Of a stretch of DNA of 64,000 nt, positions 18,241 through 62,720 are shown one piece after another. This DNA comes from Gemmatimonadota bacterium (lineage in GTDB: Bacteria; Gemmatimonadota; Gemmatimonadetes; Gemmatimonadales; GWC2-71-9). The stretch is taken from assembly GCA_046726475.1 (NCBI GenBank), contig JBKPAO010000060.1, positions 1,664 through 65,663 on the forward strand, in the 5' to 3' direction. A program made the position numbers and the translations under genes. The notes below the pieces were generated by a model. That model had not been told where the DNA came from, made no database searches, and was given only the letters and a program-made list of their open reading frames with translations. Position 1 is the stretch's first letter. Each line of letters starts with the position of its first letter.

Positions 18241-18313
18241 AGGTCTAGGGTCTCTGGTGGCGGGCCAAATGTGCTCCCCCCCTTATAGCCCTAGACTCTA
18301 GACCCTAGACCCT
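18241..18313. repeat. mirror array, heptamer GGTCTAG / CTAGACC
   Basis: AGGTCTAGGGTCT (18241-18253), a 37-nt spacer, then CTAGACT CTAGACC CTAGACC CT (18291-18313). The arms are reverse complements (13 bp with one bulge). Confidence 0.85.
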
Positions 18314-18325
18314 CTTGAGGTACCG

Positions 18326-18994
18326 ATGGCCCAGCAAGCAAATCTCCAAGCCGCCACTCGCTCCAACACCGGTAAAGGCGCAGCCCGGAGCCTTCGTCGC
18401 GAAGGCAAGGTGCCGGGCGTGATCTACGGCCACAACCGGCCGCCCGAGCCGTTGGTGATCGACTCCACCGCGCTCAGCAAGATGCTGCTCGGCATCAGCG
18501 CCGGGACCACCGTCTTCGACGTCGTGGTGGACGGCCGTCCCGCCGTGAAGGCACTCATCCGCGAGATTCAGCGGGATTCGGTTCGTCCCGCCGAGATTCT
18601 GCATCTCGATCTCTACGAGGTCCGCGCCGACGAGAAGGTCACCCTCTCCGTTCCCATCCACCTCGTCGGAATCCCCGACGGTGTCCGGAACTTCGGTGGG
18701 GTCCTCGACCACTCTCTGCGCGAGCTCGAGATCGAAGTGCTGCCGGTGGACATCCCGGATCACGTGGAGCTGGACGTGACTGCGTTGGAGATCGGGGACT
18801 CCCTGTTCGTGCGCGACGTCAAGGTAGAGAAGGCGGAGATCCTCAACGATCCCGACACACCGGTGTGTAGCGTGGTCGCCCCGAGGACTGAGGAGGCCCC
18901 GGCGCCGGTGGAGGAAGCTGCAGTGACCGCCGAGCCCGAGCTGATCCGGAAGCCCAAGCCCGAGGAAGAGGGCGAGGCAGAACCGAAAGCCTGA
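18326..18994 (+). CDS. rplY: 50S ribosomal protein L25/general stress protein Ctc
   Basis: ...GKGAARSLRREGKVPGVIYG... is followed by an acidic C-terminal tail. Confidence 0.9.
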   Translation: MAQQANLQAATRSNTGKGAARSLRREGKVPGVIYGHNRPPEPLVIDSTALSKMLLGISAGTTVFDVVVDGRPAVKALIREIQRDSVRPAEILHLDLYEVRADEKVTLSVPIHLVGIPDGVRNFGGVLDHSLRELEIEVLPVDIPDHVELDVTALEIGDSLFVRDVKVEKAEILNDPDTPVCSVVAPRTEEAPAPVEEAAVTAEPELIRKPKPEEEGEAEPKA

Positions 18995-19009
18995 CCCCTG
19001 CACACGATC

Positions 19010-19582
19010 GTGGGGCTGGGAAATCCCGGCCCAGAGTACGAGGACACCCGACACAACGCAGGGTTTCGCCTCGCCGATCGCCTGGTGGATCGTTGGCAGC
19101 TGGGGCCGTTCCGGCGGGGTGATCGGGCCCGGGAAGCACGCGGGACCTGGCGGGACCACTCCGTCACGGTGATGAAGCCTCAGACCTATATGAATCGGAG
19201 TGGAGCGGCGATCGCTCCGCTCCGAGCTCGCCCCGATTTCGACCCCAGCCGACATCTCTTGATCATGGTAGACGACGTGGCGCTTCCCGTCGGCCGTTTC
19301 CGGCTTCGGGGCGCCGGGTCCGCCGGCGGTCACAACGGGCTCAAGAGCGTCGAGGGAGTTCTCCAGCGGCAGGACTACGCCCGGCTTCGCATCGGTGTCG
19401 GCCCTGCGCCGCCGGGGCTGGACGACCTGGCGGACTTCGTTCTCGACCGGTTCACGGCCGAGGAACGGGAAGCTATCGGCGCGCTGCTCGATCCCATGAG
19501 TGAGGCCGTCGAATGCTGGCTGGAGAGTGGCATCGAGACGGCCATGAGTGAGTTCAACCGGTGGCAGACTCCCAGCTCTTGA
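19010..19582 (+). CDS. pth: peptidyl-tRNA hydrolase
   Basis: The N-terminal signature is GLGNPGPEYEDTRHNAGF. The start is GTG. Confidence 0.9.
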   Translation: MGLGNPGPEYEDTRHNAGFRLADRLVDRWQLGPFRRGDRAREARGTWRDHSVTVMKPQTYMNRSGAAIAPLRARPDFDPSRHLLIMVDDVALPVGRFRLRGAGSAGGHNGLKSVEGVLQRQDYARLRIGVGPAPPGLDDLADFVLDRFTAEEREAIGALLDPMSEAVECWLESGIETAMSEFNRWQTPSS

Positions 19583-19600
19583 CTCCCAGCTGCTGAATCC

Positions 19601-20723: not shown

Positions 20724-20747
20724 CCCCGCTTCCCCGCCGCCCTGCTT
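20724..20747. repeat. solo C-rich octamer array CCCCGCTT CCCCGCCG CCCTGCTT
   Basis: Seen directly. The unit family is the same as at 28343-28374 and 44884-44936. Only a weak G-rich partner exists (GGGGCAAC, 20797-20804). Confidence 0.6.
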
Positions 20748-20852
20748 GCCGACTATCTTTGATCCTACAAATCTCCTCCTCGGCGCCACACCAGCCCGGG
20801 GCAACCCAGCCGGTGGTCTCTCGTGAGCCGGCAAAGTCCAAAGGAAGGTGTC

Positions 20853-28000: not shown

Positions 28001-28266
28001 TGAGGTTCCTCCCGCAGGGGTTTCCACCAATCGAAGGAGGCATCTTTTACGATATCGGGCTGGTCTGGGACGAAGAATCTACAATCCGATGGAGCCGGAA
28101 GGAGGGGGATGATCCCGTGAATGTCCGCACTCCGTTGCGAGTGTTCGGAGCTTCACTACGGGCCAACGTCTTCGGCTTCGCCATCGCACGGCTGGAATAT
28201 GCGGTCCCGCAGAATCGCCGGGGGGTCGGTGGACTGTGGACGCTCAGTCTGGGTCCGACATTTTAG
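25057..28266 (+). CDS. outer-membrane protein: MA-type metallopeptidase-like domain + TolB-like PD40 beta-propeller + Omp85/surface-antigen-like beta-barrel
   Basis: It has a signal peptide and an HEMAH (HExxH) motif. There are five (W/L)SPDG PD40-type repeats. The C-terminal ~450 aa are beta-rich and end ...WTLSLGPTF, with the terminal Phe typical of OMPs. Confidence 0.78.
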   Translation: MLRRAAPIVLSLLLAPALLPAQYFGRNKVQYSTFDFKVIQTEHFDVYYYERERVAAMDAARMAERAYARLSKVLNHDFRERKPIILYASHSDFQQTNALGEPPSEGTGGVTDFQRNRAVMPFTGSYAEFEHVLQHEMAHQFQYDTWSRGRAGGGLSTIIAINPPLWFAEGMAEYLSIGPINPETAMWLRDASLEGSLPSIEQMTLDPYRYFPYRFGHALWSYIGERWGDEAVGAILKATLAGGIEGAFRRTIGLTLDQLSDQWRDAVQKKYLPEIGARAKASAIADELLTEKRSQGTLHLAPALSPDGSRVAYFSEKDFYYVDLYLADGTTGKVKRRILKSGVSSNYETYRFINSQANWSPDGKFLAFAAKRGGRDDIVIVDVDRNKQVKRIELKLSGVTTPSWSPDGKQLVFTGYDGGLSDLFVVSRDGGNLRRLTQDKYADLHPVWSPDGHTIAFATDRGGHTDFKTLDIGNMRIALYDLDLGSIQVLDQMDQGKNVSPQWSPDGTSIAFVSDRNGVSNIFLYELNAKALYQLTDFYTGTQGITPLSPVLSWAAQADRLAFCYFEKGKYDVYTLANPRSLKHQPYQRTAPDSSGMLAAVTATPVDTTRSLQVPEEVRSQVGEGGSIYRSPQGFRSSSEVTRTGDTTISTPPVSIAALLDSARYNLPDTSEFSVKKYRVHFMPDYVARPAIGYSRDNFGRGFFGGAAVSLSDILGNHQLVFAGYVNGRISEAQVLAAYINMSRRINWIAGISQEPYYFYEPSQVRVDEPAPGLNTFVTNVRRLVVRSAFGQAYYPISRFQRIEANLRVANVDDAVLSILEPYNPFSGFATDDPTLETNNQPGVTYVQPSAALVFDNSLFGYTGPFYGRRWRLDFAQTIGDWRYSQITADYRRYDKIAGPVILALRLFYFGRIGRDTDRFRIFGGSTDLIRGNTSGSYRRHECLNANDVNTRTGCAELDRLVGSQIGITSAELRFPILTPAMRFLPQGFPPIEGGIFYDIGLVWDEESTIRWSRKEGDDPVNVRTPLRVFGASLRANVFGFAIARLEYAVPQNRRGVGGLWTLSLGPTF

Positions 28267-28374
28267 CAGCGGGCAGCGGGGCAACAGGCCCGCGGGGTGG
28301 TTACAGTTGCAGAGACACGACTCTCAGAATGCTCTGGCGCCGCCCCCCTGCCCCGCTGCCCTGCTGCCCCGCTA
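28266..28374. repeat. mirror array, octamer CAGCGGGG / CCCCGCTG
   Basis: GCAGCGG GCAGCGGG GCAACAGG (28266-28288), a 54-nt spacer, then CCCCCCTG CCCCGCTG CCCTGCTG CCCCGCTA (28343-28374). The left arm starts at the last base of the upstream TAG stop. Confidence 0.85.
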
Positions 28375-28384
28375 TCTTCCGTCC

Positions 28385-29779
28385 GTGAAATTCCCAGTCA
28401 TACTGTTGGGAGCCGCCGCCGTCCTGATCAGCTCGGCGTGCAAGGGCTCCTCCGACCTCGCGACCGGCAGTCTGTCCGGGACCTCGCGTAGTCTCCCCAG
28501 TGTCAGCGTGCTCCGTATTCCGAAAGAGGGGGGCCTGCCCCGCCTGTACCGCGCTCCAGGCCTCGACTCGGCCGCGTGGAAGTCAGCCGAGCGGCTCCCG
28601 CCCATCGAGCGAACGATCGGCGCCGATCCCGAGCAGGGCCTCGTGTTCGCGCTCGATCGCAAGAACAACGTCGTCGGTGTTGACCTGGATACGCGCCGAG
28701 TCAGGACGTTCTTGGAGAACGTCCGCTATGCCGCGCTGGGACCGGACGGCGCTCTCTATGCCGTGGATACGGGGAGCACCGTTACCCAACTGGTCCGGCG
28801 AACGCCGGTGCGGTTTCGGTCCAAGCTCCAGGGCAAGCCGCTGGAGATGCAGGGCACCATGGACGGTGCCCTGCTCGCCCATCTGGCCGGAAACCACTCG
28901 GCACTCGAGTTCCTCGGATCCGACCAGCCACCGACCTCGACCGAGCTGCCTAAGGGGCAGGTCACCTCCAGCTTTCTCGGCGACCTGGTAGCTGTCGCGG
29001 CGGACACGGCAGTCATTCTCTACACTCCGCAAAACAAGTCGAAACCCAAGGTCATCCCGGTGGAAGGTGATGCCCGGGCTGTCCTCTTCTCGCCTTCCGG
29101 TCATCGCCTCTATGTCGCCCGGGCAGCGGCACCGCTGCTCATACTGGATCGCTACGAGGGCACCCGTCTCCGCGAGATCGAGCTGCCGGGCCCGGCTCGG
29201 GGACTCCGGAGCGATCTCTATGGAAGCTGGCTTCTGGTCCAACCGGAGAACGCCGACTCGGTTTGGGTGATCGACGTCGGTACCGGCAAGTACGCCGGTG
29301 CCACCGCCGCTCGGTGGACTGCTGATCTGCCGGCAGTGGCCGCGCCCCACACTCTTCTGCTGCGACGCGGTAGTGACTTGGTCGCCCTCGACCTCGGCGC
29401 ACCTGGCTTCAAGGAGGTCGGCAGGGTTCCCGGCGGGGCCACCGACTTCTGGCTGCCGCTGGCATGGCATCCGCCTGCGGAGAACGAGCTTCCCATCGAG
29501 TCCGATTCGACGTCCACCGCGTCGGCAGACAGCAGCGCGAACCGACCGACCGTGTACCTCCAGGTGAGCAGCTCGCAGAATCCTACCTGGGCCAGCGAGC
29601 TCTCCGAAAAGCTTCGGGCAGCCGGCCTCCCTGCGTCGGTGCTGACACCTCGTCGCTCAGAGGAAGCCTATCGTGTCGTGTTGGGACCATACGCCACCCG
29701 CGAGCAAGCGGAGGAAACCGGCCGCAAGCTCGGAATGCCTTCATTTATAGTCACAGCCCAGGACCAGTCGGCTAAATAG
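28385..29779 (+). CDS. SPOR domain-containing lipoprotein
   Basis: GTG 28385 gives VKFPVILLGAAAVLISSACKG (lipobox). The C-terminus ...VYLQVSSSQNPTWASELSEKLRAAGLPASV...YRVVLGPYATREQAEETGRKL... is a SPOR fold pattern. Confidence 0.7.
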   Translation: MKFPVILLGAAAVLISSACKGSSDLATGSLSGTSRSLPSVSVLRIPKEGGLPRLYRAPGLDSAAWKSAERLPPIERTIGADPEQGLVFALDRKNNVVGVDLDTRRVRTFLENVRYAALGPDGALYAVDTGSTVTQLVRRTPVRFRSKLQGKPLEMQGTMDGALLAHLAGNHSALEFLGSDQPPTSTELPKGQVTSSFLGDLVAVAADTAVILYTPQNKSKPKVIPVEGDARAVLFSPSGHRLYVARAAAPLLILDRYEGTRLREIELPGPARGLRSDLYGSWLLVQPENADSVWVIDVGTGKYAGATAARWTADLPAVAAPHTLLLRRGSDLVALDLGAPGFKEVGRVPGGATDFWLPLAWHPPAENELPIESDSTSTASADSSANRPTVYLQVSSSQNPTWASELSEKLRAAGLPASVLTPRRSEEAYRVVLGPYATREQAEETGRKLGMPSFIVTAQDQSAK

Positions 29780-32800: not shown

Positions 32801-33286
32801 GGCACCGCACGGACGATGTTCGTGGACACGTTTACCGCGATCCAGGCCAACTTCTCCAAGGTGTTTCAAACCCTGTTCGGCGGAGGCGAATGCGAGCTTC
32901 GCCTCGCCAGCCCGGATGACCCGTTGGAGAGCGAGATCGACATTCACGCCGCACCGCGCGGCAAGCGCACCCAGCGCATCCACCTCCTCTCCTCCGGCGA
33001 GCGCACGCTGGTGGCCGTGTCCCTCCTCTTCAGTATCTACCTTACCAAACCCAGTCCCTTCTGCCTCATGGATGAGGTGGACGCACCGCTCGACGACGCC
33101 AACGTCGGCCGCTTCACTCGCCTGCTGGAGGAGTTCAAGGACGAAACCCAGTTCCTGGTCATAACCCACAATCCTCGGACGATGCAGTCGGCCGACGCGG
33201 TGTACGGGGTGACCATGCAGGAGCCGGGCGTGTCGACGATCGTTGGAGTACGGCTTGGCGAGCGGGAGCAGATTGAAAGAGTCTAG
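29807..33286 (+). CDS. smc: chromosome segregation protein SMC
   Basis: Walker A is GPNGCGKSN. There are long coiled-coil arms and a hinge. The C-terminus has ...LLSSGERTLVAVSLLF... and Walker B FCLMDEVDAPLD. Confidence 0.95.
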   Translation: MKLTKLELSGFKSFADTVTLTFDQGVTAIVGPNGCGKSNVSDSVRWVLGEQSARLLRGGKMEDVIFQGSAARRPVNVTEVSLFLDNSDGDLPIAYREVVVTRRLSRSGQSDYLLNGSPVRLRDIQDLLRGTGLGSDAGAVIEAKMIDLLLSDRAEERRSLFEEAAGIGLYRDRKHSTERRLEETAVDLQRVEDLIAEVQSQIRSLARQRGKAERHAKLSEEKFAVQLTLARRQLEHLSEEVAGMETRYAELAELRPAARERLAQSDHLREHGVHARATAEARRTEITHRLATLRVEIGRLEGDLALASERLAHASSRRLRAAEERTHMEQRAQQASLEQSSAAEDHQTAAAEHTRIGRELAGRAEAEEAVRRKLSDQRATVRQLEQDLQHYAQSLKSLEGERAALEGELLALRERAAQAEAHRSRLSLELGEAQQSHGLAAENADTSTRDAKRATASADHARHLVAETREREAMHRADRRQAEESLAQLTARRQALEELERDRVGLAPGAAALLGAREQFDGGVLGPLSDFVSTGREKAELAERLLGEWMHAVLVRDADSVNAIQAWHAEHQPGALVLLPVDPGPVTPSTEAAFAEQLQAEGPAAGWVRAALAGSEVLDENGRVLRRASGAIFLSGQGAPFGPIRRRAELATVLDETEQAERSLSGADAALRDTIERLRELEQTLADATSAAERARDAERLAAASREDASRIVGNLTREVAESETQLQRINERVAASEQRLREIDRSLTAGELTRSRVEEELGASRILLSDLEAEQEAAREQRAHWQVQEAHLAGSLRAAAERLERAGRTRAEAEESARALSSELAQLETDAAGLATQQGEWLEALAERRVALQELDSASSQAEAELSSAEEALAAAEREVAAVRGELESAGDESHALEVRLTEVAGLRRSIVDRVEAEWHRPFDQLMDSAVPLELDMETLETEASRIHAALESIGPVNPLAVEEHAEESKRLEFLTSQRDDLVSARQSLMQAIREIDGTARTMFVDTFTAIQANFSKVFQTLFGGGECELRLASPDDPLESEIDIHAAPRGKRTQRIHLLSSGERTLVAVSLLFSIYLTKPSPFCLMDEVDAPLDDANVGRFTRLLEEFKDETQFLVITHNPRTMQSADAVYGVTMQEPGVSTIVGVRLGEREQIERV

Positions 33287-33403
33287 GGTCTAGGGTCTAG
33301 AGTCGAGGATCTAAGCCCAAGGGGCACAGGTTGATCCGACTGTGGCCTCGCGGGCCTGGCATGCAGCGTGCATGATTAGACCCTAGAAGGCCGACTCTAG
33401 ACC
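33281..33403. repeat. mirror array, heptamer GTCTAGG / CTAGACC
   Basis: GTCTAGG GTCTAGG GTCTAGA GTCGAGG ATCTAAG (33281-33315), a 60-nt spacer, then TTAGACC CTAGAAG GCCGACT CTAGACC (33376-33403). The smc TAG stop (33284-86) lies inside unit 1. Confidence 0.85.
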
Positions 33404-33428
33404 TCCTTGCACGGGAGTCCCAGCTCGA

Positions 33429-41073: not shown

Positions 41074-41091
41074 GCCAAGGTCTAAGAAAAC

Positions 41092-41177
41092 GTGAACAGT
41101 GAACGGTAAACAGTAAACGGGGCGCGTCCGTTCCCTCCGGTTTACTGTTCACTGTTTACTGTTTACTGTTGCTTACT
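41092..41177. repeat. mirror array, heptamer GTGAACA/GTAAACA vs GTTTACT/GTTCACT
   Basis: GTGAACA GTGAACG GTAAACA GTAAACG (41092-41119), a 21-nt loop, then GTTTACT GTTCACT GTTTACT GTTTACT GTTGCTTACT (41140-41177). Hand pairing of 41092-41118 with 41140-41166 gives 23 Watson-Crick pairs, 3 G-T pairs and 1 mismatch. Confidence 0.88.
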
Positions 41178-43599: not shown

Positions 43600-44834
43600 T
43601 TCGTACTCAGCCGGTGCACGGCGGCCGCAACCCCGGCGTGGGCAGGCAAGGCCAAGGCGATGACATCGCCGTTCACCTGATAAAACTGCGGAAACAGCTT
43701 CAGGATCAGCCCCAGGAGGGACAGCCCGGCTACCACGGCCGCGACCACCAGGGCAGGCCTTGCCCTGACGGGAGAGCCGAATACGGCTCGGGTGAGGAGC
43801 CAGATCAACGGTAGACTCAGGAGATTGGCCTGGAGGGCATTCTCGTTGTCGTAGGCCGCCGCGTGATCGGTGAGCGCCCACAGACCGACGAGTACCAATC
43901 CAGCGATGCCGCTGGCCAGACACCACATCCAGGTGGTCAGCAGAAACGCCCATTTCGCTACCGAGCTCCTTCGCACCGCACCGGAAAACCCGAACACCAG
44001 CCCTCCGACAGCGACTCCTCCCAGCAAATACATCGGTAACCAACCCGGCGGCTGGGCGGGAGGAATCGGCTCGCTGGATTGGAACAGCGTCCGCTCCGAT
44101 TTGACCAGCGGTACCTCGCGGCCGTCGGCTCCAGTGACTGTGACGGTACGAACCCACTCGCGCACCGCCAGGGGCAGAAACATCTCCTGCCAGGCCGAGA
44201 TAGGCCGGTCCACCGGGTGACCAAGCGCCAGCAGCAATCCGGTGAACACCAGAGGATCGTTTGCGGTCAAACGCTGGGTGTGGAATCGGTAGGTCCGTCC
44301 AGTCATGACAGTCTCGGTGCGTTTCCTGAGTCTGGCGCCCAGCGCTCGATCCAGGGCATCGCGCACTCGCGTCGAGCAGTTGTCCCGATAGTAGTCGTAG
44401 TGGTAGAAGCGGTGCTCCGGTTGCTCGTTCCACTCCAGAAACGCCTGAAGCTCGCGGCGCTTCCCTACCGGGATCTCGAGCTCCTGCACCCAGACCGACC
44501 GATTAGCCCTCCGGTACGACTCGACATAGGACTGCGCAGGAAAGCCCTGCATCCAGTACCACATTCGTCCCTGGACGAATCGCAGGAGAAAGTTGTGCTG
44601 CCGGAAGTCGAACAGCCCATAGTTGTATGCCTGATCGGTCCCGTGAGCGGGATCGTGAATCCAGATGGCATTGTGTCCGAACCGCTCCCAAACCTGCTTG
44701 CCGGGACCCATGGTCATCAGGTACACCCTTAGCAGGGTGTCCTGGGGGGAAGCGGGGAAGCGGGGAAGCGGGGAACTCTGTTGGGCAGCCAGCGGCGTGC
44801 TGAAAAACACAGCAACAAGGACGATGGGTCTCAC
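43554..44834 (-). CDS. DUF4105 (Lnb N-terminal periplasmic domain) protein with C-terminal multi-TM region
   Basis: ...VYLMTMGPGKQVWERFGHNAIWIHDP...YNYGLFDF... is the DUF4105 pattern. GTG 44834 gives the signal peptide MRPIVLVAVFFSTPLAAQ. The alternative start is ATG 44717. The ORF-track N-terminus (to 44942) is repeat-encoded. Confidence 0.68.
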   Translation of the reverse strand: MRPIVLVAVFFSTPLAAQQSSPLPRFPASPQDTLLRVYLMTMGPGKQVWERFGHNAIWIHDPAHGTDQAYNYGLFDFRQHNFLLRFVQGRMWYWMQGFPAQSYVESYRRANRSVWVQELEIPVGKRRELQAFLEWNEQPEHRFYHYDYYRDNCSTRVRDALDRALGARLRKRTETVMTGRTYRFHTQRLTANDPLVFTGLLLALGHPVDRPISAWQEMFLPLAVREWVRTVTVTGADGREVPLVKSERTLFQSSEPIPPAQPPGWLPMYLLGGVAVGGLVFGFSGAVRRSSVAKWAFLLTTWMWCLASGIAGLVLVGLWALTDHAAAYDNENALQANLLSLPLIWLLTRAVFGSPVRARPALVVAAVVAGLSLLGLILKLFPQFYQVNGDVIALALPAHAGVAAAVHRLSTNQEPATRVNPSLASR

Positions 44835-44936
44835 GAAGACGTGAATCCACTGTCCCGCCCATTCCCCCACAAGCAGGTACCCGCCCCGCTGCCCCGCTGC
44901 CCTTCCCCGCCTCCCCGCTTCCCAGCTTCCCCGACC
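44746..44936. repeat. mirror array, octamer GGGGAAGC / CCCCGCTT, bracketing the DUF4105 start region
   Basis: GGGGAAGC x3 plus GGGGAACT (44746-44777), 106 nt, then CCCCGCTG CCCCGCTG (44884-44899) and CCCCGCCT CCCCGCTT CCCAGCTT CCCCGACC (44905-44936). Confidence 0.88.
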
Positions 44937-51263: not shown

Positions 51264-51311
51264 TGTCATCCTTCGCTGCGCTCAGGATGACATGCTTCGC
51301 CCAGGATGACA
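51264..51311. repeat. short GTCATCCT...AGGATGAC hairpin plus an extra AGGATGACA copy (candidate bidirectional terminator)
   Basis: TGTCATCCT (51264-72), an 11-nt loop, then AGGATGACA (51284-92). A second AGGATGACA lies at 51303-11. The element sits between convergent metX and the sigma-factor gene. Confidence 0.6.
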
Positions 51312-51345
51312 GGCTCTGTGGGAAGGCCGTACTTAGAAGGCGTAC

Positions 51346-52215: not shown

Positions 52216-52253
52216 GTGGGGAACCTTACTCCCGGTTTGCATGAGGCGCAATG

Positions 52254-52397
52254 GAGGTTCGAGTCGAGAGTCGCGAGTCGAGAGTCGCGAGACCCGTTGC
52301 GTGACTACCGTCACGTGAAAGGCTTGACCCTCGACACCAACCTGCTCTCAAAAACTCGTGACTCATGACTCGTGACTCTCGACTTTCGACTCGACTA
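52254..52397. repeat. mirror array, heptamer GAGTCGM / KCGACTC
   Basis: (GAGGTTC) GAGTCGA GAGTCGC GAGTCGA GAGTCGC GAGACCC (52254-52295), a 58-nt spacer, then ACTCGTG ACTCATG ACTCGTG ACTCTCG ACTTTCG ACTCGAC TAG (52354-52397). The ALDH TAG stop (52395-97) lies inside the last unit. Confidence 0.88.
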
Positions 52398-53947: not shown

Positions 53948-54403
53948 TTACTGCCCTGAAGGCGGTGCGGGGTTGGCGGCCGGAGGCGGCGCTGGGCAGG
54001 TCCATTCACGCGCTTCCTTGGCGTAACCGGTGCGTGGCAGAATTTCCCGCGCAGCCATCACGCCGGCCGATACGATCACCAGCAGCGAAAGCAGCAGCGC
54101 TACCCCTTGGCGGTGAGTCCAGCTGGCAAAGGCGCCGAGCACGGCCATGATCCCTGCAAGAAGGGCCGCACCAAGGAAAAAGATCAGCCGGATGCCGCAA
54201 TTCTTATCGTACGGCCAGAGCAGGAGCGCGATCCCGAGCACGATCGCGAGCACCGTCCAGAACCAGGCCAGTGCGATGAACCGTCGGCGCGGCACCGGTT
54301 GGGCTACCGGGACAGTCGCCCCAGCTGGCACTCCCGGCTGCTTCCCCATGGCCCGGTCGATATTGGCGAGCTCCTTGTCCCAGTCTCTCGGCTGCTCAGT
54401 CAT
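53948..54403 (-). CDS. hypothetical membrane protein (4 predicted TM helices)
   Basis: ATG 54403 ([21 protein letters not shown]...) overlaps the upstream stop by 8 nt. The core is hydrophobic and no family was recognised. Confidence 0.5.
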   Translation of the reverse strand: MTEQPRDWDKELANIDRAMGKQPGVPAGATVPVAQPVPRRRFIALAWFWTVLAIVLGIALLLWPYDKNCGIRLIFFLGAALLAGIMAVLGAFASWTHRQGVALLLSLLVIVSAGVMAAREILPRTGYAKEAREWTCPAPPPAANPAPPSGQ

Positions 54404-55760
54404 TCGATCTCCCGGGTGGGGTAATGCCAAAGCGCTCGATCTTCTTGTACAGGTTGGACCGCGGCATCTTCAACGCCTTCGCGGTCTCGGTCACGTTCCA
54501 ATCGTTCTCCACCAGGCGCTGCACCAGAAACTTCTTCTCCGTCTCCTCCCGGAACTTCTCGTAGCTTTGACCGTCCCGCGCACCCGACACTCCAGCGCCG
54601 TTGGGCAACAGCTGCTCGATATCTTTGGCATTGACAACCTTGCCCGATGCCAAAATCAACGCTCGCTCCACTGCGTTCCTGAGCTCGCGCACGTTGCCGG
54701 GCCAGGAGCGGCTCTGGAGCTGGCGGATTGCGTCAGCCGAAAACTTCTTTCCCGGGATACCGGCGCCAGCGGACAACTGCTCCACAAAATGGGCGACCAG
54801 CGCCGGAATGTCCTGGCTGCGCTCGCGGAGTGTGGGTACGTGGATCGGCACCACGTTCAGCCGGTAGAGCAAGTCCTCCCGGAACCGGCCCGCCGCGATC
54901 TCCTGGTCCAGCTGCTTGTTGGTAGCCGCGAGCACTCGCACATCCACCTGAATCGCCTTGGCTCCGCCGATCCGGGTGACCACGCCCTCCTGCAGCACGC
55001 GCAACAGCTTGGCCTGTGCCGGGAGCGACATGTCTCCCACTTCGTCAAGGAAGAGGGTGCCTCCATCGGCCTGCTCGAACTTCCCTGCCCGGTCGGCGAC
55101 GGCCCCGGTGAACGATCCCTTCATGTGACCGAACAGCTCGCTCTCGATCAGCTCCGAAGGGATCGCGGCGCAGTTAACCTCGACGAACGGCCGCTCCCGG
55201 CGGGGTGAGGCCTCGTGCAGCCCCCGAGCGACCAGCTCCTTCCCGGTGCCGTTCTCACCGGTGATGAGCACGCGGGCGGAAGTGGGACCCACCTTGGCGA
55301 TCAGCTGCCGGACCTCCTCGAGTGAGGCGCTGCTTCCCACCATCGCGAACCGGCTCTCGGTCGCTTCCTTGAGCCGGGAGTTCTCGTCCACCAGTTCGGC
55401 ATGCGCCAGCGCGTTCCGCACCGTGACCAGTAAGCGGTCGGTGTCGAGCGGCTTCTCCAGAAAATCGAACGCTCCCCGCTGAGTGGCTTCCACTGCGGTC
55501 GCGATGGTCCCATGGCCCGATATCATCACCACCTGTGCCCTCGGATCGAGCTTTCGGATTCGCGTGAGAGTGTCCAGTCCATCGAGCCCGGCCATCTTCA
55601 CGTCCAGAAATACCAGGTGCGGGCGGAACTCGGGATAAACCGTGATCGCCTCGCCACCGGTAGCAGCGACTTTGACCGTCAGGTGTTCATACTCCAGCAC
55701 CTGCTTCAGCGCCTGACGGATTCCCGCCTCGTCGTCGACGATCAGAATGCGATGACTCAT
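54396..55760 (-). CDS. sigma-54-dependent Fis-family response regulator (NtrC-like)
   Basis: It has a receiver (ILIVDDE...[11 protein letters not shown]) and an AAA+ domain ([17 protein letters not shown], ...GSFTGA..., ...[11 protein letters not shown]...). A C-terminal Fis HTH is also present. Confidence 0.9.
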
Positions 55761-56958: not shown

Positions 56959-57767
56959 CAGTCCCGCGCGAGCGGCGCGATCGCGAGCAGACCGCCTCTA
57001 CGGTAGCCGGCGGGGTCCAGCTCGACCTGGTCGAAACCAAAGCTGCCGAAAGCGGCATCGATCGAGCTCCAGTTAGCCCGCAGCCGATCCATCTGCTCGG
57101 GGGCTACCTCCAACCGGGCCTTGGCTCCGTAGTGCCGCACCCGGAGGTCTCCTGTGACTCCGAGCTGCCGCAGAAACGCCTCTCCCTGCTCTACTTGCCT
57201 AAGCCGCTCTGAAGTAATCTCTAGCCCGTAGAGCACCCGGCTGGAAAGGCACGGCGCGGCCGGAGCGTCCCAGGTCGGAAGCCTCAGCTTGCGGGCGGCG
57301 GCACGGACCTGGGACTTGCTCCACCCCAGCTCCGCAAGCGGCGAGCGGACCCCGTATTCCTTTATAGCGCGAAGACCGGGCCGGTGGTCGCCCAGGTCGT
57401 CGGCATTGGTTCCATCCATGATTACGTCGTACCCACCTTCTTGCGCGACCGCTCTCAAACGGCGCCACAGCTCCGACTTGCAGAAGTAGCATCGCTCGGT
57501 CGTGTTCTCGAGGTAGCGGGGGTCGTTCAGCTCCTGGGTGTCGACCTCGAGCAACGGAATGTGGAACTGTTGGGCGAGCCGGACTGCGTTTTCGGCCTGG
57601 ACTGCAGGATACGACGCGCTTCGTCCCATGACGGCGAGGAAGCACTCCGGCCCGAGAGCTCTCGTCGCCGCAACCGCCAGAAGAGCGGAATCGACGCCAC
57701 CGGAGTAGCCGAGCACGGCACTGCCGAGGGAGTGGAGCTGGACGTAGAGGTTTTCGAGGTCGGGCAT
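56958..57767 (-). CDS. larE: PP-loop ATP-utilising enzyme, LarE-like sulfur transferase family (TIGR00268-type)
   Basis: It has the PP-loop YSGGVDSALLA and ...ERCYFCKSEL.... ATG 57767 is the start (MPDLENLY...). The assignment to LarE function itself is by family only. Confidence 0.72.
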   Translation of the reverse strand: MPDLENLYVQLHSLGSAVLGYSGGVDSALLAVAATRALGPECFLAVMGRSASYPAVQAENAVRLAQQFHIPLLEVDTQELNDPRYLENTTERCYFCKSELWRRLRAVAQEGGYDVIMDGTNADDLGDHRPGLRAIKEYGVRSPLAELGWSKSQVRAAARKLRLPTWDAPAAPCLSSRVLYGLEITSERLRQVEQGEAFLRQLGVTGDLRVRHYGAKARLEVAPEQMDRLRANWSSIDAAFGSFGFDQVELDPAGYRRGGLLAIAPLARD

Positions 57768-57778
57768 GGGGGAAACGT

Positions 57779-57878
57779 AAGCGGAAAGGCGGTAAGGCGG
57801 TAAGGCGGAACGTGTCCCCACGTTCCGTCGTTCCCCACGTTCCGCCGTTCCCCACGTTCCGCCGTTCCGTCGTTCCGC
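57779..57878. repeat. mirror array, octamers AGGCGGWA vs CGTTCCGY (8-9 nt) around a central GGAACGTG/CACGTTCC hairpin
   Basis: AAGCGGAA AGGCGGTA AGGCGGTA AGGCGGAA (57779-57810). The central palindrome is 57807-57826. Seven CGTTCC-type units follow (57821-57878), including a 17-nt repeat CGTTCCCCACGTTCCGC x2. Confidence 0.85.
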
Positions 57879-57890
57879 CTAACTTCCCCC

Positions 57891-58325
57891 ATGCCCGACG
57901 GCTTCCTCGAAATCACCCCCGACCTCCGTCTTCCCTTCCTCGAGCTGGAGTACCTCGCCTCGCGTTCCGGCGGCCCCGGCGGCCAGCATGTGAACACGTC
58001 CTCGACCCGGATCGAGCTCTGGTGGGATGTGGCGCGATCGCCCAGTCTCACTCCAGAGCAGCGGTCATGGTTGCTGAAGCGACTCGCACCGCGCCTTGAT
58101 TCCGAGGGGCGTCTCCGGCTGGTCTCCAGCGGGTCGCGAAGCCAGCTCAGGAATCGAGAGGACGTGACCGAGCGACTGCGAACCCTGGTGGCAGCGTCGA
58201 TGGTGGTACCCAAGAAGCGGAAGCCTACCAAACCTACCCGCGCGGCAAAGGCGGCCCGCCTGGAAGCTAAGCGCCGCCGTGCGACCACGAAGCAGCAGAG
58301 GCGTGCTCCCTCGCCCGACGACTAG
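57891..58325 (+). CDS. arfB: alternative ribosome rescue factor ArfB (peptidyl-tRNA hydrolase, GGQ)
   Basis: It has ...SGGPGGQHVNTSSTR... and a basic C-terminal tail (KKRKPTKPTRAAKAARLEAKRRR). Confidence 0.88.
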   Translation: MPDGFLEITPDLRLPFLELEYLASRSGGPGGQHVNTSSTRIELWWDVARSPSLTPEQRSWLLKRLAPRLDSEGRLRLVSSGSRSQLRNREDVTERLRTLVAASMVVPKKRKPTKPTRAAKAARLEAKRRRATTKQQRRAPSPDD

Positions 58326-59002: not shown

Positions 59003-59011
59003 GGAGAACCT

Positions 59012-59185
59012 ATGGCTACTGCAAGACAGAAGGCGGCAGCACGACGCAACATCAAGAAGGCAGCGAAAGCAGCGAGACGGAAGAAGACCATCGCCAAGCT
59101 GCCCAAGAAGATCCGCACGGCGCTGGGAAAGCAGGGGGCCAAAATGGCGCAGCGGAAGCGACGCGGTCGCGGAAGCACTGCTTAA
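59012..59185 (+). CDS. small highly basic protein (57 aa; Lys/Arg/Ala-rich, histone-H1-like composition)
   Basis: It is not in the ORF track because it is under 60 aa. The strong SD GAGGAG (59001-59006) lies 5 nt before ATG 59012. The translation is MATARQKAAARRNIKKAAKAARRKKTIAKLPKKIRTALGKQGAKMAQRKRRGRGSTA, with TAA at 59183-85. Confidence 0.5.
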   Translation: MATARQKAAARRNIKKAAKAARRKKTIAKLPKKIRTALGKQGAKMAQRKRRGRGSTA

Positions 59186-59210: not shown

Positions 59211-59681
59211 ATGCCCACTACCCTTGCACCGGAGCAGACCGCGGCCGCTCTGCGCCAGCTCCATGCCTCGCTTCTAGACTCCTGGAACCGCCGTGACGCA
59301 GCGGGGTTTGCCGCACTGTTCACACCTGCGGGAAACGTCGTCGGATTCGATGGAAGTCCGGTGGACGGAGCCGGCACCATCCGGGATCACCTGCAGCAAA
59401 TCTTCACCGACCACCGTCCCGCCGCCTACGTTGCCATTGTGCGGGAAGTGCGCCAGCTCGGCTCCGACACGGCGCTACTTCGTGCGGTGGCGGGAATGGT
59501 GCCACCGGGAAAGACCCAGGTGAATCCCGCGGTGAATGCCATCCAGAGTCTGGTCGCGCGGCAGGAGAAGGGACGTTGGCTGATCGAGCTGTTCCAGAAC
59601 ACGCCGGCGGCGTTTCACGGTCGTCCCCAGGAGGCGGCAGCCCTCACCGCTGAACTGCAGCGGCAGTCGGACGCGAAGTAG
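59211..59681 (+). CDS. SgcJ/EcaC family (NTF2-like, DUF4440) protein
   Basis: ...LLDSWNRRDAAGFAALFTPAGNVVGFDG...GRWLIELFQNTP... is the family pattern. Confidence 0.72.
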   Translation: MPTTLAPEQTAAALRQLHASLLDSWNRRDAAGFAALFTPAGNVVGFDGSPVDGAGTIRDHLQQIFTDHRPAAYVAIVREVRQLGSDTALLRAVAGMVPPGKTQVNPAVNAIQSLVARQEKGRWLIELFQNTPAAFHGRPQEAAALTAELQRQSDAK

Positions 59682-59785
59682 GAGGACGGGCGGACAGGCG
59701 GAGTGACGTTCAGACCAGTCATCCTGAGTGAAGTGAAGGATCCGTTCCTTCCCCGTCCGCCTGCCCGCCTGTCCGCCTGTCCGCC
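59681..59785. repeat. mirror array, octamer AGGCGGAC / GTCCGCCT with a nested half palindromic element
   Basis: GGAGGAC GGGCGGAC AGGCGGAG (59681-59703), a 51-nt spacer, then GTCCGCCT GCCCGCCT GTCCGCCT GTCCGCC (59755-59785). The spacer contains GTCATCCTGAGTGAAGTGAAGGATCC (59718-59743). Confidence 0.88.
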
Positions 59786-62259
59786 AGCAAATGCTGCACC
59801 GCCCGCACCAGCGCCTCGGGTGTCACTGGCTTTTGAATGAAGGCCATCCCCGGCGCGAGCAGTCCCCGCCGCTGGATGTCGCCGTCGGTGTAACCGGAGG
59901 TAAAGAGCACCGGTGTTTGAGGACGAAGCTCGGCGATCCGATCTGCCAGCTGGCGTCCGCTTCCACCCGGCATGACTACGTCGGTGAGCACCAAATTGAT
60001 GGGTTCGGTGCTCTCCATGAAGCGCTCCATCGCCGCGGCGGCCGTTCCCGCCTCCACCACCCGATAGCCCGCGTCCTCCAGCGAGCGCTTCAGTATAGAT
60101 CGGACCGGCGCCTCGTCCTCCACCAACAGGATGCACTCACCCCGCCTGGTCCGTTCAGGGCCCACGCCCTTCGGTTCGACCGCTACCGTGCCGGTCCGTA
60201 ACGGGAGATAGATCTTGAACGTGGTTCCCTGCCCCGGCTCGCTGTACGCCCAGATATAGCCATCCGACTGTTTCACGATTCCGTAGACAGTGGAGAGGCC
60301 GAGGCCGGTTCCCTTCCCCAGTCCTTTGGTGGTGAAGAACGGCTCGAATATGTGGCTCAGCGTCTCGCGGTCCATCCCGTGACCCGTATCCGACACGGCA
60401 AGCACGGCGTATTCGCCGGGGCGCACCGACGTCCCCGGCTTGAGCTGGGCGTAGCCGCCGCTCAGCTCGGTCCGGAACGTCTCCACGGTGATGGCACCGC
60501 CGCGTGGCATCGCGTCGCGCGCATTGAGCGCGAGGTTGAGAAGTACCTGCTCCAGTTGGCCGGGATCGGCCCGCGCCAGCGTTGGCTCGGCTGCGGTCTT
60601 CACATACACCGAGCAATCCTCCCCCATCAGCCGGCGGAGCACCGGCTCCCATTTCCTCACCACCTCGTTGAGATCCAGGATCTCCAACCGGAGCACCTGC
60701 CGGCGGCTGAAGGCGAGCAGCTGGCCCGTTACGGCGGCTGTGCGCTCGGCTGCCTTCTGAATGAACTCGACGTCTTGCCGCACCGCCTCCGGGATATCGG
60801 GACGCTGGAGGATGAAATCAGCAGCACCCATCACCACGCTCATCTGATTGTTGGTCTCGTGCGCGACACCGCCGGCCAGGCGGCCTACCGACTCCATCCG
60901 GTGGGCCTGCCGAAGCCGCTCCTCGGTCACCCGCCGCTCGGTCACGTCGGTGCACACCCCGGCCAGATAGACCGGCTCTCCCGCCTCGTTGCGCCGCACC
61001 TCGCCCTGATCCGCAATCCAGCGCACCTGACCTCCGGGAAGCACGATGCGAAACTGGTAATCCAAGTCTCCCCCACCCTGGAGCACCCGCCTCACCGATT
61101 CGGCGACGAACGTGCGATCGTCGGGATGGACCCGTTCAAGGAACTCCTCGTAACTCGAGATCCGCTCGCCGGGCACGAGGCCATAGAGCTTCCGAAGATT
61201 CTCATCCCACACCAGTGAGTTGTCCTCGACCGACCAGACCCAGGTTCCCATTCGGGCGGCCTCGAGCGCACGCCGGAGGCGCTCCTCACTGTGGGCCAGC
61301 GCCTCGGTTGCCTCGAGTCGCTCCCACCGCACTGCCGCCGCGAGCACCAGTCCGGTGATGGCCACGGCAGCCAGATAACTGCTGAGCGCGAATAGCGTGT
61401 TCGTGGTGGTCCCGCCGACGAAGGGGCCGCTCCCTCCAACGGTGTGGACCACCGCAGCGACGGCAACGCTAAGTGTCATCACAGCGGCCCCTCGAGCGCC
61501 GAAGCGGAGCGCCGCCCAGATCACGAAGGGGAACAAGAGGTATTGGTAGTCTACCTGCCGAAGCACATTGGGATCGACCAGCCGCCCGAGACCCACTTCC
61601 GCGACGATCAGCGCCCCGATGCAGAGCACGACCAGCTCGAGGATTGGTCTGCTGCTTCCCTCCTGACGCGGCGGACTGCTCCAGGCCAGGATTGCCGGTG
61701 CCACCACCAGGGCGCCGAGGAGGTCCCCAGTCCACCAGATGGCCATGGCAGGCAGTAATCCCCCGGGAAGCTCGCCGGCGAGTGAGAGCATGGCGGTGCC
61801 GATCACGGCGCTGCAGAGCGAGCCTACGGGAGCAGCGAGCAGGATGAGAGCGCGGACCTGTCGGAGATCGTCGAGCTGAGGCCTATCGCCGGCGGTGCGC
61901 CGGAGGAGGTACGCGGCGACGAGTGCCTCCGCAGTATTGCCGACTGCGATACCGCCGGCGGTCCAGAGCGGGACCGGTGTTGCGGCGTTGGCCAGGAATG
62001 CCCCGAGGAAAACGCCGGGCCAGTAGCGGTATCCCAGGAGAGTCAGGGCGGCAAAGGCGATTCCGCTGGGCGGCCAGATTAGCGATACGCTGTGACCGAT
62101 CGAGGCGTAGGCGAGACCGAGCCGGGCTGTCGCATAGTAAACGCCGGCGAGAAGCGCTACCGTGACCGCGTAGCGGAGACCCTGCTGGAGAGACGCTTTG
62201 CTTCCTAGGGAAGCTGAGTCCATGCCGAGAACCGGTGGCCGGAGGAGGCCCTGAAGCAT
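59719..62259 (-). CDS. MASE1-PAS hybrid sensor histidine kinase/response regulator
   Basis: The N-terminal multi-TM region is MASE1-like (...LRYAVTVALLAGVYYATARLGLAY...). It also has PAS, the H-box LAGGVAHETNNQM, an ATPase domain and a receiver. The start is ambiguous (ATG 62259 or 62223; ORF-track 62301 lies in a repeat). The last ~23 aa are repeat-encoded. Confidence 0.85.
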   Translation of the reverse strand: MLQGLLRPPVLGMDSASLGSKASLQQGLRYAVTVALLAGVYYATARLGLAYASIGHSVSLIWPPSGIAFAALTLLGYRYWPGVFLGAFLANAATPVPLWTAGGIAVGNTAEALVAAYLLRRTAGDRPQLDDLRQVRALILLAAPVGSLCSAVIGTAMLSLAGELPGGLLPAMAIWWTGDLLGALVVAPAILAWSSPPRQEGSSRPILELVVLCIGALIVAEVGLGRLVDPNVLRQVDYQYLLFPFVIWAALRFGARGAAVMTLSVAVAAVVHTVGGSGPFVGGTTTNTLFALSSYLAAVAITGLVLAAAVRWERLEATEALAHSEERLRRALEAARMGTWVWSVEDNSLVWDENLRKLYGLVPGERISSYEEFLERVHPDDRTFVAESVRRVLQGGGDLDYQFRIVLPGGQVRWIADQGEVRRNEAGEPVYLAGVCTDVTERRVTEERLRQAHRMESVGRLAGGVAHETNNQMSVVMGAADFILQRPDIPEAVRQDVEFIQKAAERTAAVTGQLLAFSRRQVLRLEILDLNEVVRKWEPVLRRLMGEDCSVYVKTAAEPTLARADPGQLEQVLLNLALNARDAMPRGGAITVETFRTELSGGYAQLKPGTSVRPGEYAVLAVSDTGHGMDRETLSHIFEPFFTTKGLGKGTGLGLSTVYGIVKQSDGYIWAYSEPGQGTTFKIYLPLRTGTVAVEPKGVGPERTRRGECILLVEDEAPVRSILKRSLEDAGYRVVEAGTAAAAMERFMESTEPINLVLTDVVMPGGSGRQLADRIAELRPQTPVLFTSGYTDGDIQRRGLLAPGMAFIQKPVTPEALVRAVQHLLADRRTGGQADGEGTDPSLHSG

Positions 62260-62277
62260 ACACTTCTCTGAGCCCCC

Positions 62278-62321
62278 GTCATCCTCTAACCTCACCCTCA
62301 TCCCGAACGCAGCGAAGAGCC
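62278..62321. repeat. degenerate copy of the GTCATCCTGAGCGAAGCGAAGGATC element
   Basis: GTCATCCT lies at 62278-85. CTCATCCCGAACGCAGCGAAGAGCC (62297-62321) matches about 18 of 25 positions of the arm at 47862. Confidence 0.5.
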
Positions 62322-62390
62322 TGTCCGCGCGGTTGCAGTTTTAGTCACCACAATGCAGTGTAGTATCGAGAAAAAGACCTGGGTCAGGGA

Positions 62391-62645
62391 ATGATTCATT
62401 CGATCGTGCGCTCCTGTTTCGCCGGCACCCTCCTCTGCGCCTGCGCCGGTGCCACGCAGAGCAGCCAGAGCGCGGTACCCGTCAAGCACGAACCTGATTG
62501 CAGCTTCCGATCGGCCAGCACCTGCTGGACAGTTTCCGGCAGGTTTCCTGCCGCGCGTCCGAGCGGTACCCCTCAGCTTCCTAAGACCCTCGAGGCTCCT
62601 GCCTCACTCGCGGCCGGTCGCCAGACGCCAGACACTAGTCGCTAG
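62391..62645 (+). CDS. possible small lipoprotein (hypothetical)
   Basis: MIHSIVRSCFAGTLLCACAG is signal/lipobox-like and the first half has reasonable GC3. The RBS is poor and the 3' end runs into the heptamer array. Confidence 0.3.
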   Translation: MIHSIVRSCFAGTLLCACAGATQSSQSAVPVKHEPDCSFRSASTCWTVSGRFPAARPSGTPQLPKTLEAPASLAAGRQTPDTSR

Positions 62646-62720
62646 TTCCCAGTCATCGGTCCTCAGTCGTTAGCCGGCATTGATCAGTCCGCCAGTCCGC
62701 CTGTCGGCCTGTCCTCGCCT
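62637..62720. repeat. two adjacent direct arrays: AGTCNNN x6 (7-nt period) and GTCCGCCW x4 (8-nt period)
   Basis: AGTC/AGTT/AGTC/GGTC/AGTC/AGCC start at 62637, 62644, 62651, 62658, 62665 and 62672. GTCCGCCA GTCCGCCT GTCGGCCT GTCCTCGCCT follow at 62687-62720. No inverted partner was seen nearby. Confidence 0.75.

Follow-up and report, generated by a model that had tools for sequence, protein, structure and literature searches.

Locus-specific inverted pairs of 7-9-nt microsatellite arrays in the intergenic DNA of Gemmatimonadales

Inverted pairs of tandem heptamer arrays have been described in Xanthomonas. About 185 GGGAATC arrays are present in each of two Xanthomonas genomes, with 70-75 inverted pairs in convergent orientation (G-rich first), one array per strand (Rehm et al., 2015; PMC4692102). 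The heptamers of Xanthomonas and Nostoc (GGGGAYT) form tandems of 2-26 units, 89-93% of them intergenic; in Xanthomonas the G-rich strand coincides with the coding strand where the array follows a stop codon and with the non-coding strand where it precedes a start codon, and copy number varies between related species with the locus kept (PMC4692102). Neither a link to mobile elements nor a function was found for them, and a G-quadruplex (G4), which the repeat formed in vitro, was proposed (PMC4692102). Here we report on a 64,000-nucleotide (nt) stretch of contig JBKPAO010000060.1 (assembly GCA_046726475.1, Gemmatimonadota), the whole of which we call the window, and on the mirror arrays within it: tandem arrays of short units, each facing an array of its own reverse complement. 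It is well supported that the arrays form inverted pairs of 7-9-nt microsatellites, each specific to its locus and found lineage-wide in the intergenic DNA of Gemmatimonadales, and that their architecture is that of the 'convergent' GGGAATC pairs. What is new here is their polarity, their turnover at orthologous gaps and the whole-unit changes seen in single arms.

Arrays were detected as at least 3 copies of a unit of period 6-9, with 1-3-nt repeats excluded, and a mirror partner was defined as a reverse-complement array at most 200 nt away. The window holds 9 arrays of period 7 or 8, against a mean of 0.03 per shuffle in 60 dinucleotide shuffles; seven of the nine have a reverse-complement partner and none has a direct partner within the same distance. 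A set of relatives, 1.44 Mb from 80 related genomes, contains 66 such arrays (44 with a mirror partner, 13 with a direct one), while five shuffles of it gave 0-3 arrays, none of them mirrored. The match score of an arm to its own partner has a median of 20.5, compared with a median of 5 (95th percentile 10) to the partners of other loci. All window loci that were folded give long hairpins; their RNA energies lie between -34 and -66 kcal/mol and their z-scores between -2.6 and -7.0. The arrays thus exceed shuffled sequence, and a preliminary description of the window was right that the two arms are complementary, which they are far beyond chance, and that the loci can fold into long imperfect hairpins. 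Tandem Repeats Finder (TRF) and an inverted-repeat scan located the arrays at the places it had given. Seven places are clear mirror pairs and one more (57777-57880) is mirrored in part only; the spacers, put at 4-106 nt, run from 5 to about 127 nt in the window, and the array at 62685 and an 'AGTCNNN' stretch at 62637-62680 are not reverse complements of each other.

Merging the window with the relatives gives 38 mirror loci, with a period of 7 nt in 23, 8 nt in 13 and 9 nt in two. Their arms have a median length of 28-29 nt, the lengths of the two arms of a locus are uncorrelated (r = 0.09), and a single locus lies inside a predicted coding sequence. The arms often have a higher-order period of their own, such as 14 nt (52260), 17 nt (57815, right arm only) or 21 nt (the right arm at 44884). 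An assembly artefact is ruled out by the presence of the same arrays in six independent contigs from four samples and of the mirror-array architecture in dozens of species; arrays are present, too, at the Gemmatimonas MAG loci L071 and L075. Contigs near-identical to the window (98-99.9%) come from two NCBI metagenome-assembled genomes (MAGs; GCA_046729435.1 and GCA_046724575.1) and two JGI metagenomes. The G+C content of the window is 62-67%. Relatives of its SMC protein (29807-33286), 63-83% identical, are found solely in Gemmatimonadales/Gemmatimonadota MAGs, and the source is placed in Gemmatimonadales because all these relatives are Gemmatimonadales. A cyanobacterial origin of the HIP1 or STRR (short tandemly repeated repetitive sequence) kind was rejected on the same ground and because GCGATCGC is not enriched (9 vs 5.1 expected).

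The strongest new regularity of the arrays is their polarity. The G-rich (G/purine) arm is the 5' arm in 35 of the 38 mirror loci, whether the gap is co-directional, convergent or divergent; owing to the symmetry of an inverted repeat, this G-first order is identical on both strands. The left arms consist of 48% G, 19% C, 22% A and 11% T. The same order prevails among strong inverted repeats at three gaps followed across orthologues, with G-first to C-first counts of 19:0 between the genes of the Tricorn-like protease and the SPOR protein (tricorn-SPOR), 8:3 between smc and the DAHP synthase gene, and 8:0 between rpmE and the Crp-family gene (rpmE-crp); shuffles of these three gaps contained no strong inverted repeats. 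A leaning towards G-first is seen, too, in long intergenic hairpins that are aperiodic (15-19 vs 3), and perfect stems of at least 9 bp inside genes show no such bias (370 vs 399). Background skew was rejected as the cause: in array-free intergenic DNA the G-C skew is +0.02 to +0.04 after stops and -0.05 to -0.11 before starts, nearly unskewed compared with the +0.42 of the arms. The 35:3 ratio is a sharp signature that lends itself to testing.

The preliminary description had recognised no named repeat class in these arrays. The Xanthomonas pairs share their architecture, position and polarity (PMC4692102), common to both being tandem heptamers, intergenic location and convergent pairing; the many units seen here do set the present arrays apart. 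Xanthomonas has one G4-forming unit genome-wide, whereas about five unit families, mostly incapable of a three-tetrad G4, occur in 64 kb here; more than half of the Xanthomonas sites are single arrays, whereas nearly all here are paired and complementary to their own partner only; octamers are as common as heptamers here, unlike in Xanthomonas, and divergent gaps, under-represented there, are not so here. No window array has the unit GGGNATC or GGGGAYT, the nearest being AGGAATC in relative L040 only. Four G3 runs, the Xanthomonas-type preference, were found in 5 of the 38 left arms, so that G4 formation was rejected as a general explanation; at least four GG runs are present in 20 of the 38. 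The STRR repeats of cyanobacteria and the TAACTGA repeats of Beggiatoaceae are likewise intergenic tandem heptamers near the boundaries of open reading frames (ORFs), with slippage as their presumed origin, but they are direct arrays on a single strand, with one unit per genome and without locus-specific complementarity (PMC4679880); only one inverted case is found among 170 TAACTGA sets (PMC4679880). The arrays are also unlike those of CRISPR, as their 7-9-nt units stand head-to-tail without spacers and the two arrays of a pair are inverted. No Rfam family matched them: at the gathering score the sole match in the window is a tRNA at 11971-12041. Literature searches found no description of mirror arrays for Gemmatimonas or Gemmatimonadota and no follow-up on the Xanthomonas GGGAATC repeats.

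The unit was said to differ at every locus. Units do vary, yet the ten loci of the window use about five unit families and several units recur: GGTCTAG twice, MAGCGGGG three times and AGGCGGNN three times. Between loci at different sites, units that differ by at most one mismatch are found in 22 pairs, against 6.6 +/- 2.5 (maximum 17) in 2000 composition-preserving shuffles. The recurrent octamers have two GG doublets of the GGNGG type (AGGCGGAC, GGCGGAAC, GGACGGAC), and the recurrent heptamers are of the RGTC (GGTCTAG, GAGTCGC, GGTCGCG) and GGTGA types. Because units are more alike than composition-matched random units, the array sequence is not free. This weakens the earlier argument that freedom of sequence speaks against a single mobile family; judged from the sequences, units may have spread from locus to locus, or certain sequences may be preferred.

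Comparison of orthologous gaps shows how these arrays come and go. Of 60 species compared between tricorn and SPOR, 16 lack an array and have at most 40 nt between the two genes; the gap is at least 80 nt in 35 species, 19 of which have strong G-first inverted repeats. Between smc and the DAHP synthase gene, 24 of 69 species lack the array, again with at most 40 nt of gap. Units at the tricorn-SPOR gap include CAGCGGGG, GGACGGAC, GACGGAGAG, GGCGGGCAGAC, CGGGGAA, GGCGGGTAA and GGTAAACAGTGAA; when species with different units are compared there, an arm matches its own partner better than the partner from the other species in 12 of 14 pairs. At the smc gap a homologous array persists within one clade; its GTC/GAC core lasts, and the rest of the unit changes in both arms (GGTCTAG/CTAGACC, GAGCTGG/CCAGCTC, GAGTCGC/GCGACTC, GGGAGTC/GACTCCC). 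Relatives L005 and L036 differ there by one 7-nt unit in a single arm, their intergenic region being 85% identical and the third codon positions of smc 60%; the window and relatives L006 and L052, with third positions 46-47% identical, still have GGTCTAG in both arms. Some arrays outlast neutral divergence. At the tricorn-SPOR gap, L005 has CAGCGGGG, and in its sister L036 the ancestral CAGCGGGG pair is replaced by GGACGGAGA.

Among close strains, changes come as whole units. Other strains 98.2-98.8% identical to the window lack exactly 34 nt (2 x 17) in the right arm of the 57779 locus, and one strain in this range lacks exactly one 8-nt unit of the array at 62685; at the 52261 locus, in the same range, the arms are remodelled and the loop is almost unalignable between identical flanks. 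Since strains differ by whole units in single arms, slippage acts on one arm at a time, and the generating process suspected earlier is directly visible. Four strains 99.3-99.9% identical have unchanged copy numbers in all three arrays compared. Hypervariable behaviour resembling phase variation was rejected, as copy-number changes appear only at 1-2% divergence. Separately, a 90-nt indel (window 59058-59147 vs strain L085) lies downstream of a HAD-hydrolase gene; it is bounded by GGCAGCG direct repeats and contains no array.

Gene contexts were taken from the gene calls of the near-identical contigs and from Pfam. As had been proposed, the arrays fill about half of the intergenic gaps longer than 80 nt (about 9 of 15 between 18 and 63 kb, on a rough gene map), and co-directional, convergent and divergent gaps are all used, at about base rates. 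The left arm mostly begins within a few nt (about 5) of the upstream stop codon or inside it (smc, tricorn protease, ALDH), in agreement with the earlier report of arrays overlapping stop codons: the smc TAG sits inside the first GGTCTAG unit. The end of the right arm lies 13-21 or 37-47 nt from the next start codon. The other claim about these contexts, that simple canonical termination does not explain the arrays, also holds: they lack a U-tract, have long loops and in some cases stand upstream of both divergent promoters. Canonical terminators were accordingly rejected as an identity for them, and hairpin-plus-T-run terminators are not themselves enriched in the window (4 vs 11.3 expected and 12 vs 11.0 expected). 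The single good canonical terminator in the 40 kb scanned is at 36047-36083 (- strand), after the gene at 36106-37791; its stem is 16 bp long, its loop 5 nt, and TTTATT comes next.

The reading that we prefer, as a possibility that falls somewhat short of probable, is that slippage-grown pairs are kept as orientation-independent RNA hairpins at the boundaries of transcription units. Since the G/purine arm is 5' in all contexts, a polymerase arriving from either side would make the purine-rich RNA first, and it is this that leads us to an orientation-independent hairpin; the pyrimidine-rich arm would then zip onto the purine-rich one. To judge from the sequences, a short inverted repeat would seed each pair, often taken from local sequence such as the upstream stop codon or a C-rich motif beside the downstream -10 element. 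Each arm would then grow and shrink independently through slippage of whole units or multi-unit blocks, as seen between strains, and in the longer term the unit would change in both arms jointly with complementarity kept, either by selection for pairing or by template switching from arm to arm. Arrays grown in this way would fill the free space from the stop codon to the next promoter or start codon. Their hairpins could act as a U-tract-independent pause or termination site, protect the 3' end of the upstream transcript and insulate neighbouring promoters from read-through, and would serve a genome without enriched canonical hairpin-plus-U-tract terminators. Purine- and pyrimidine-rich RNA:DNA hybrids differ in stability in an established order, and the pyrimidine-rich 3' arm might leave a weak pyrimidine-RNA:purine-DNA hybrid beneath the growing hairpin as a stand-in for the U-tract; bidirectional hairpins, and 'I-shaped' ones without a U-tract, have been proposed for GC-rich bacteria. 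A broader form of this idea is, in our estimate, unlikely: that G-first inverted microsatellite pairs are a general, largely sequence-independent class of bidirectional transcription boundary in those GC-rich bacteria that have no canonical terminators (Gemmatimonadota, Xanthomonas and probably others) or, alternatively, a new non-autonomous element with simple-sequence-repeat termini. As a general class, they would arise through slippage, which would also keep renewing them, and the purine 5'/pyrimidine 3' order would be their functional signature. If functional, the arrays would explain the ends of transcription units without canonical terminators in a whole phylum of GC-rich soil bacteria and would give the Xanthomonas repeats a function, their locus-specific units being a natural experiment that separates structure from sequence; even if not functional, they would be a clean case of co-evolution of microsatellite and palindrome in bacteria.

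Several results weigh against hairpins retained for a boundary function. The presence of arrays varies among species at all three orthologous gaps, so that they are dispensable at every one. Like intrinsic terminators, they would place a GC-rich hairpin right after a stop codon, and a symmetric hairpin could act both ways; but intrinsic terminators have loops of 3-8 nt and a U-tract, whereas the arrays have a median loop of 53 nt (range 2-154), at least five T in the 10 nt past the right arm in 7 of the 38 loci only (T makes up 28% of these positions) and stems of 20-40 bp of repeats, some upstream of both divergent promoters. There is no preference for context: periodic pairs occur in ++/--, +- and -+ gaps at roughly those gaps' own frequencies, with 5-6 of 23 periodic hairpins in divergent gaps, which make up 21% of gaps. 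The rpmE-crp arrays lie upstream of both -35 boxes, and therefore the flanking promoters do not transcribe them. Covariation of the arms, suggested earlier as a check, is seen between different units and not at finer scale, an arm within a same-unit clade matching its own partner no better than a foreign one. RNAalifold on 12 orthologous smc-site regions likewise recovered only the 6-bp GTC/GAC core stem with a covariation term of -0.05, a result limited in that arrays from species with different units do not align. Mismatches of G-U type outnumber those of A-C type 61:29 on the + strand, but the sign is the same in -- and -+ contexts and does not track gene orientation, so the excess is inseparable from strand mutation bias.

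Many of these results agree with a non-adaptive origin, which we regard as somewhat unlikely in itself and nearly as likely as the boundary hairpins. Here slippage and quasi-palindrome template switching would run on in unconstrained intergenic DNA, and selection would only limit their spread at stop codons, -10 elements and ribosome-binding sites. Quasi-palindrome template switching and slipped-strand mispairing are mutational processes known from E. coli genetics; they make and homogenise imperfect inverted repeats and change copy number by whole units. Base-rate context frequencies, presence and absence at all three orthologous sites and the lack of species-specific fine covariation are what such a by-product would show, as are the exact abutment of arrays on functional elements, the uncorrelated arm lengths and the single-arm changes. 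Heptamers are also the commonest long simple-sequence repeats in bacteria, which is attributed to the polymerase footprint, according to Mrazek as cited in two later papers (PMC4679880, PMC4692102). What an undirected process leaves unexplained is the polarity, which a symmetric DNA mechanism does not predict, together with the same unit kept in both arms where synonymous sites are saturated, the joint change of unit in the two arms and the restricted vocabulary; nor do these processes amount to a class of elements.

The remaining explanations appear to us progressively less probable. That the arrays are non-B DNA, a G4 with an opposite i-motif or a cruciform modulating supercoiling or promoter activity, has been proposed for the Xanthomonas GGGAATC repeat, which forms a G4 in vitro (PMC4692102). 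Several units here are G4-capable (e.g. GGGGAAGC x4, CAGCGGGG), GG runs are frequent in the left arms as counted above, and some arrays stand directly upstream of -10/-35 elements and in the space that separates divergent promoters, a place where negative supercoils build up. We nevertheless judge this rather improbable: G3 runs are rare, GAGTCGM, GTRAACA and GGTCTAG-type units are incapable of a stable G4, and a G4 needs no complementary arm, yet the arms are complementary locus by locus; a cruciform would hardly extrude from duplex DNA across spacers of 50-150 nt, and convergent gaps gather positive, not negative, supercoils. Still less probable are non-autonomous mobile or convertible elements with tandem-array termini, of which a few families, similar to MITEs (miniature inverted-repeat transposable elements) or REPs (repetitive extragenic palindromes), would spread between loci and genomes. 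The recurrence of units at non-orthologous loci would then be expected, including GGTCTAG at 18241 and 33281 with a similar GATTGAARGAG outside the left arm and GACGGAGAG at both the tricorn-SPOR gap (L022) and the rpmE-crp gap (L026), as would the swap of the CAGCGGGG for the GGACGGAGA pair in L036 with L005 unchanged. The loops, however, are locus-specific: those at 18241 and 33281 are unrelated although the unit is shared, and the promoter in the smc-site loop is present also in species without arrays, so that the two arms flank pre-existing DNA. No target-site duplications were seen in the 64-kb window, the right-arm units at the tricorn-SPOR gap derive from a conserved local CCCCGC-TATCTT motif, and the genes flanking arrays in the window include no transposase and no REP-associated transposase (RAYT). 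REPs stabilise the mRNA upstream of them and are bound by gyrase or IHF; they can also attenuate transcription, and insertion sequences target them. The REPs and BIMEs (bacterial interspersed mosaic elements) of Enterobacteria and Pseudomonas resemble the arrays in being intergenic, hairpin-forming and abundant, and a GTCATCCYGAGCG element is seen in array loops of relatives; but REPs, conserved sequences of 20-40 nt of which a genome has one or a few, are linked to RAYTs and confined to transcribed gaps rather than those between divergent genes, whereas the arrays consist of tandem 7-8-nt units and occupy divergent gaps as well. Least probable of all, and by our estimate highly so, are binding sites for a few DNA- or RNA-binding proteins that read motifs spaced by 7-8 nt, one for each unit superfamily. 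The restricted vocabulary (GGNGG octamers; RGTC and GGTGA heptamers) and the GTGAAC/GTTCAC units adjoining a Crp-family gene would suit such proteins, against which stand the differences of unit between species at a single orthologous site, the large number of unit variants in only 64 kb and the drift of units with their phase retained; no candidate binding protein is known.

The loci of the window are listed in Table 1.

Table 1. Repeat arrays of the window, with their arms, flanking genes and predicted RNA folds (arms given as left / right)
Feature	Position of arms	Arm units	Location	Loop (nt)	Region; RNA fold	Detection
Mirror pair GGTCTAG	18242-18255 / 18289-18313	GGTCTAG GGTCTCT / CCCTAGA x3.6	between prs (PRPP synthetase, stop 18237) and L25/Ctc gene (start 18326)	about 33	18242..18313; -34.3 kcal/mol, z -2.6	
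Single C-rich array, no G-rich partner	20724-20750	CCCCGCTT CCCCGCCG CCCTGCTT	between ychF and rpsF			sequence read directly
Mirror pair CAGCGGGG	28264-28297 / 28338-28373	CAGCGGG(G) / CCCCGCTG	between Tricorn-like protease gene (stop 28266) and SPOR protein gene (probable GTG start 28385)		28264..28373; -66.4 kcal/mol, z -5.0	
Mirror pair GGTCTAG	33281-33313 / 33376-33410	GGTCTAG x4.7 / interrupted CTAGACC units	between smc (stop TAG 33284-33286) and DAHP synthase gene (start 33429)	76	33278..33410	
Mirror pair GTRAACA / GTTYACT	41083-41121 / 41137-41175	GTRAACA x4 / GTTYACT x4	midway between divergent rpmE (start 41012, - strand) and Crp-family gene (start 41249, + strand)	15	41083..41175; z -7.0	inverted-repeat scan: 39-nt arms, 79%
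Mirror pair GGGGAAGC	44746-44775 / 44884-44933	GGGGAAGC x3.8, perfect / CCCCGCTK x6.6	between GFO/IDH/MocA oxidoreductase gene (stop 44939, - strand) and Lnb_N protein gene (- strand)	about 108-127, by how degenerate inner right-arm units are counted	44746..44933	inverted-repeat scan: 30 nt, 93%
Mirror pair GAGTCGM	52259-52296 / 52354-52394	GAGTCGA GAGTCGC, perfect 14-nt period (100% match) / ACTCGTG/ACTCATG/ACTCTCG	between ALDH gene (stop 52395-52397, - strand) and sigma-70 family gene (start probably 52242)	60	52259..52394; z -3.6	TRF, inverted-repeat scan
Partial mirror pair	57777-57814 / 57815-57880	AGGCGGWA x4 / TCCCCACGTTCCGCCGT x3.9, 17-nt period	entire 123-nt divergent gap, start codon to start codon, between NAD-synthase-like gene (start 57767, - strand) and RF-1-domain gene (start 57891, + strand)		57769..57890; z -6.0	
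Mirror pair AGGCGGAC	59680-59702 / 59755-59785	AGGMGGAC x2.9 / GTCCGCCT x3.9	between convergent DUF4440 gene (stop 59681) and MASE1 hybrid histidine kinase gene (- strand, stop 59719)		59680..59785; z -5.9	
Single C-rich array, no mirror partner	62685-62714	CAGTCCGC x3.8				

The partial pair at 57777 is mirrored solely in its loop-proximal unit GGCGGAACGTG, and its arms amplify different parts of a common palindromic seed, GGCGGAACGTG-tcccc-CACGTTCCGCC; it is flanked by CATGGGGGAA / TTCCCCCATG, which are palindromic as well. The left arm at 28264 begins within the tricorn stop codon and the right arm terminates at the conserved CCCCGC-TATCTT motif. At 41083 the array lies between the two -35 boxes, that of crp belonging to a TTGACA-17-TATGCT promoter at 41188-41216. 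The two GGTCTAG loci share the sequence GATTGAARGAG just outside the left arm (18226-18250 vs 33268-33292), where it overlaps the last codons of prs and smc, two unrelated genes; the sharing could be accidental or the remnant of a conversion event involving both loci.

Arrays are a practical nuisance in annotation, as they extend ORF calls into a C-terminal tail of the histidine kinase and into false N-termini. ORF callers take array arms as coding at 59722-59793, 28121-28384 and 52243-52314: the last ~24 codons of the MASE1 kinase ORF are encoded by the right arm and loop at 59680, and for the SPOR and sigma-70 genes the long ORFs run upstream through arrays. In some MAG contigs of relatives a period-8 array stands at the very start or only a few bases from it (L009 10-43, L033 1-29, L042 13-55, L047 1-75), and therefore arrays may be breakpoints of short-read assemblies, which would bias any MAG-based census. 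Within the smc coding region, ARAGORN calls a tRNA-Ala(cgc) at 31004-31078 (- strand), probably a false positive as Rfam gives it no support. TRF also reports two tandem repeats (19 nt x2.2 and 13 nt x2.0) at 51275-51348, in the gap upstream of 51346, which are unmirrored.

Promoter-like elements adjoin several arrays. A C-rich arm runs into CTATCTT, a -10-like motif, at both 20753 and 28373, in the latter case 6-7 nt ahead of the GTG with which the SPOR gene starts, and CCCCGC-TATCTT-N6-GTG is kept in nearly all orthologues of this gene; we infer a leaderless promoter there. The -10-like hexamers TATCTT, TAACTT and TACGTT stand 5-7 nt before GTG or ATG starts without a Shine-Dalgarno sequence (28367-28387; 57876-57893; 57765-57782), a pattern that suggests that leaderless mRNAs are common in the lineage. 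The loop of the smc site holds a conserved sigma54-type motif, TGGCATGCAGCGTGCA, at 33357-33372, upstream of the DAHP synthase gene. This -24/-12 motif (TGGCAY-N5-KTGCA or TGGCCC-N5-TTGC) has its sole match in the window here, occurs at orthologous positions in L001-L039 and is conserved across Gemmatimonadales, species without arrays included; a gene for a sigma54 activator is located at about 54396-55760. Control of an aromatic-biosynthesis gene by sigma54 would be unusual.

A separate palindromic element, GTCATCCTGAGCGAAGCGAAGG, is present at 47862-47931, with perfect 22-nt arms and a 26-nt spacer, and half a copy is found at 59712-59736; the loop at 59680 contains half of a GTCATCCTGAG element. 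Among the relatives, 14 copies of GTCATCCYGAGCG occur in 7 of 84 loci (L010, L023, L025, L028, L031, L052, L072), often inside the loops of mirror arrays or replacing arrays in the same gaps. Together GTCATCCTGAGCGAAGCGAAGG and GTCATCCYGAGCG look like a REP/MITE-like family that targets array gaps. Just after the element at 47862-47931 lies a strong promoter-like sequence, TTGACA-16-TATAGT, at 47949-47976.

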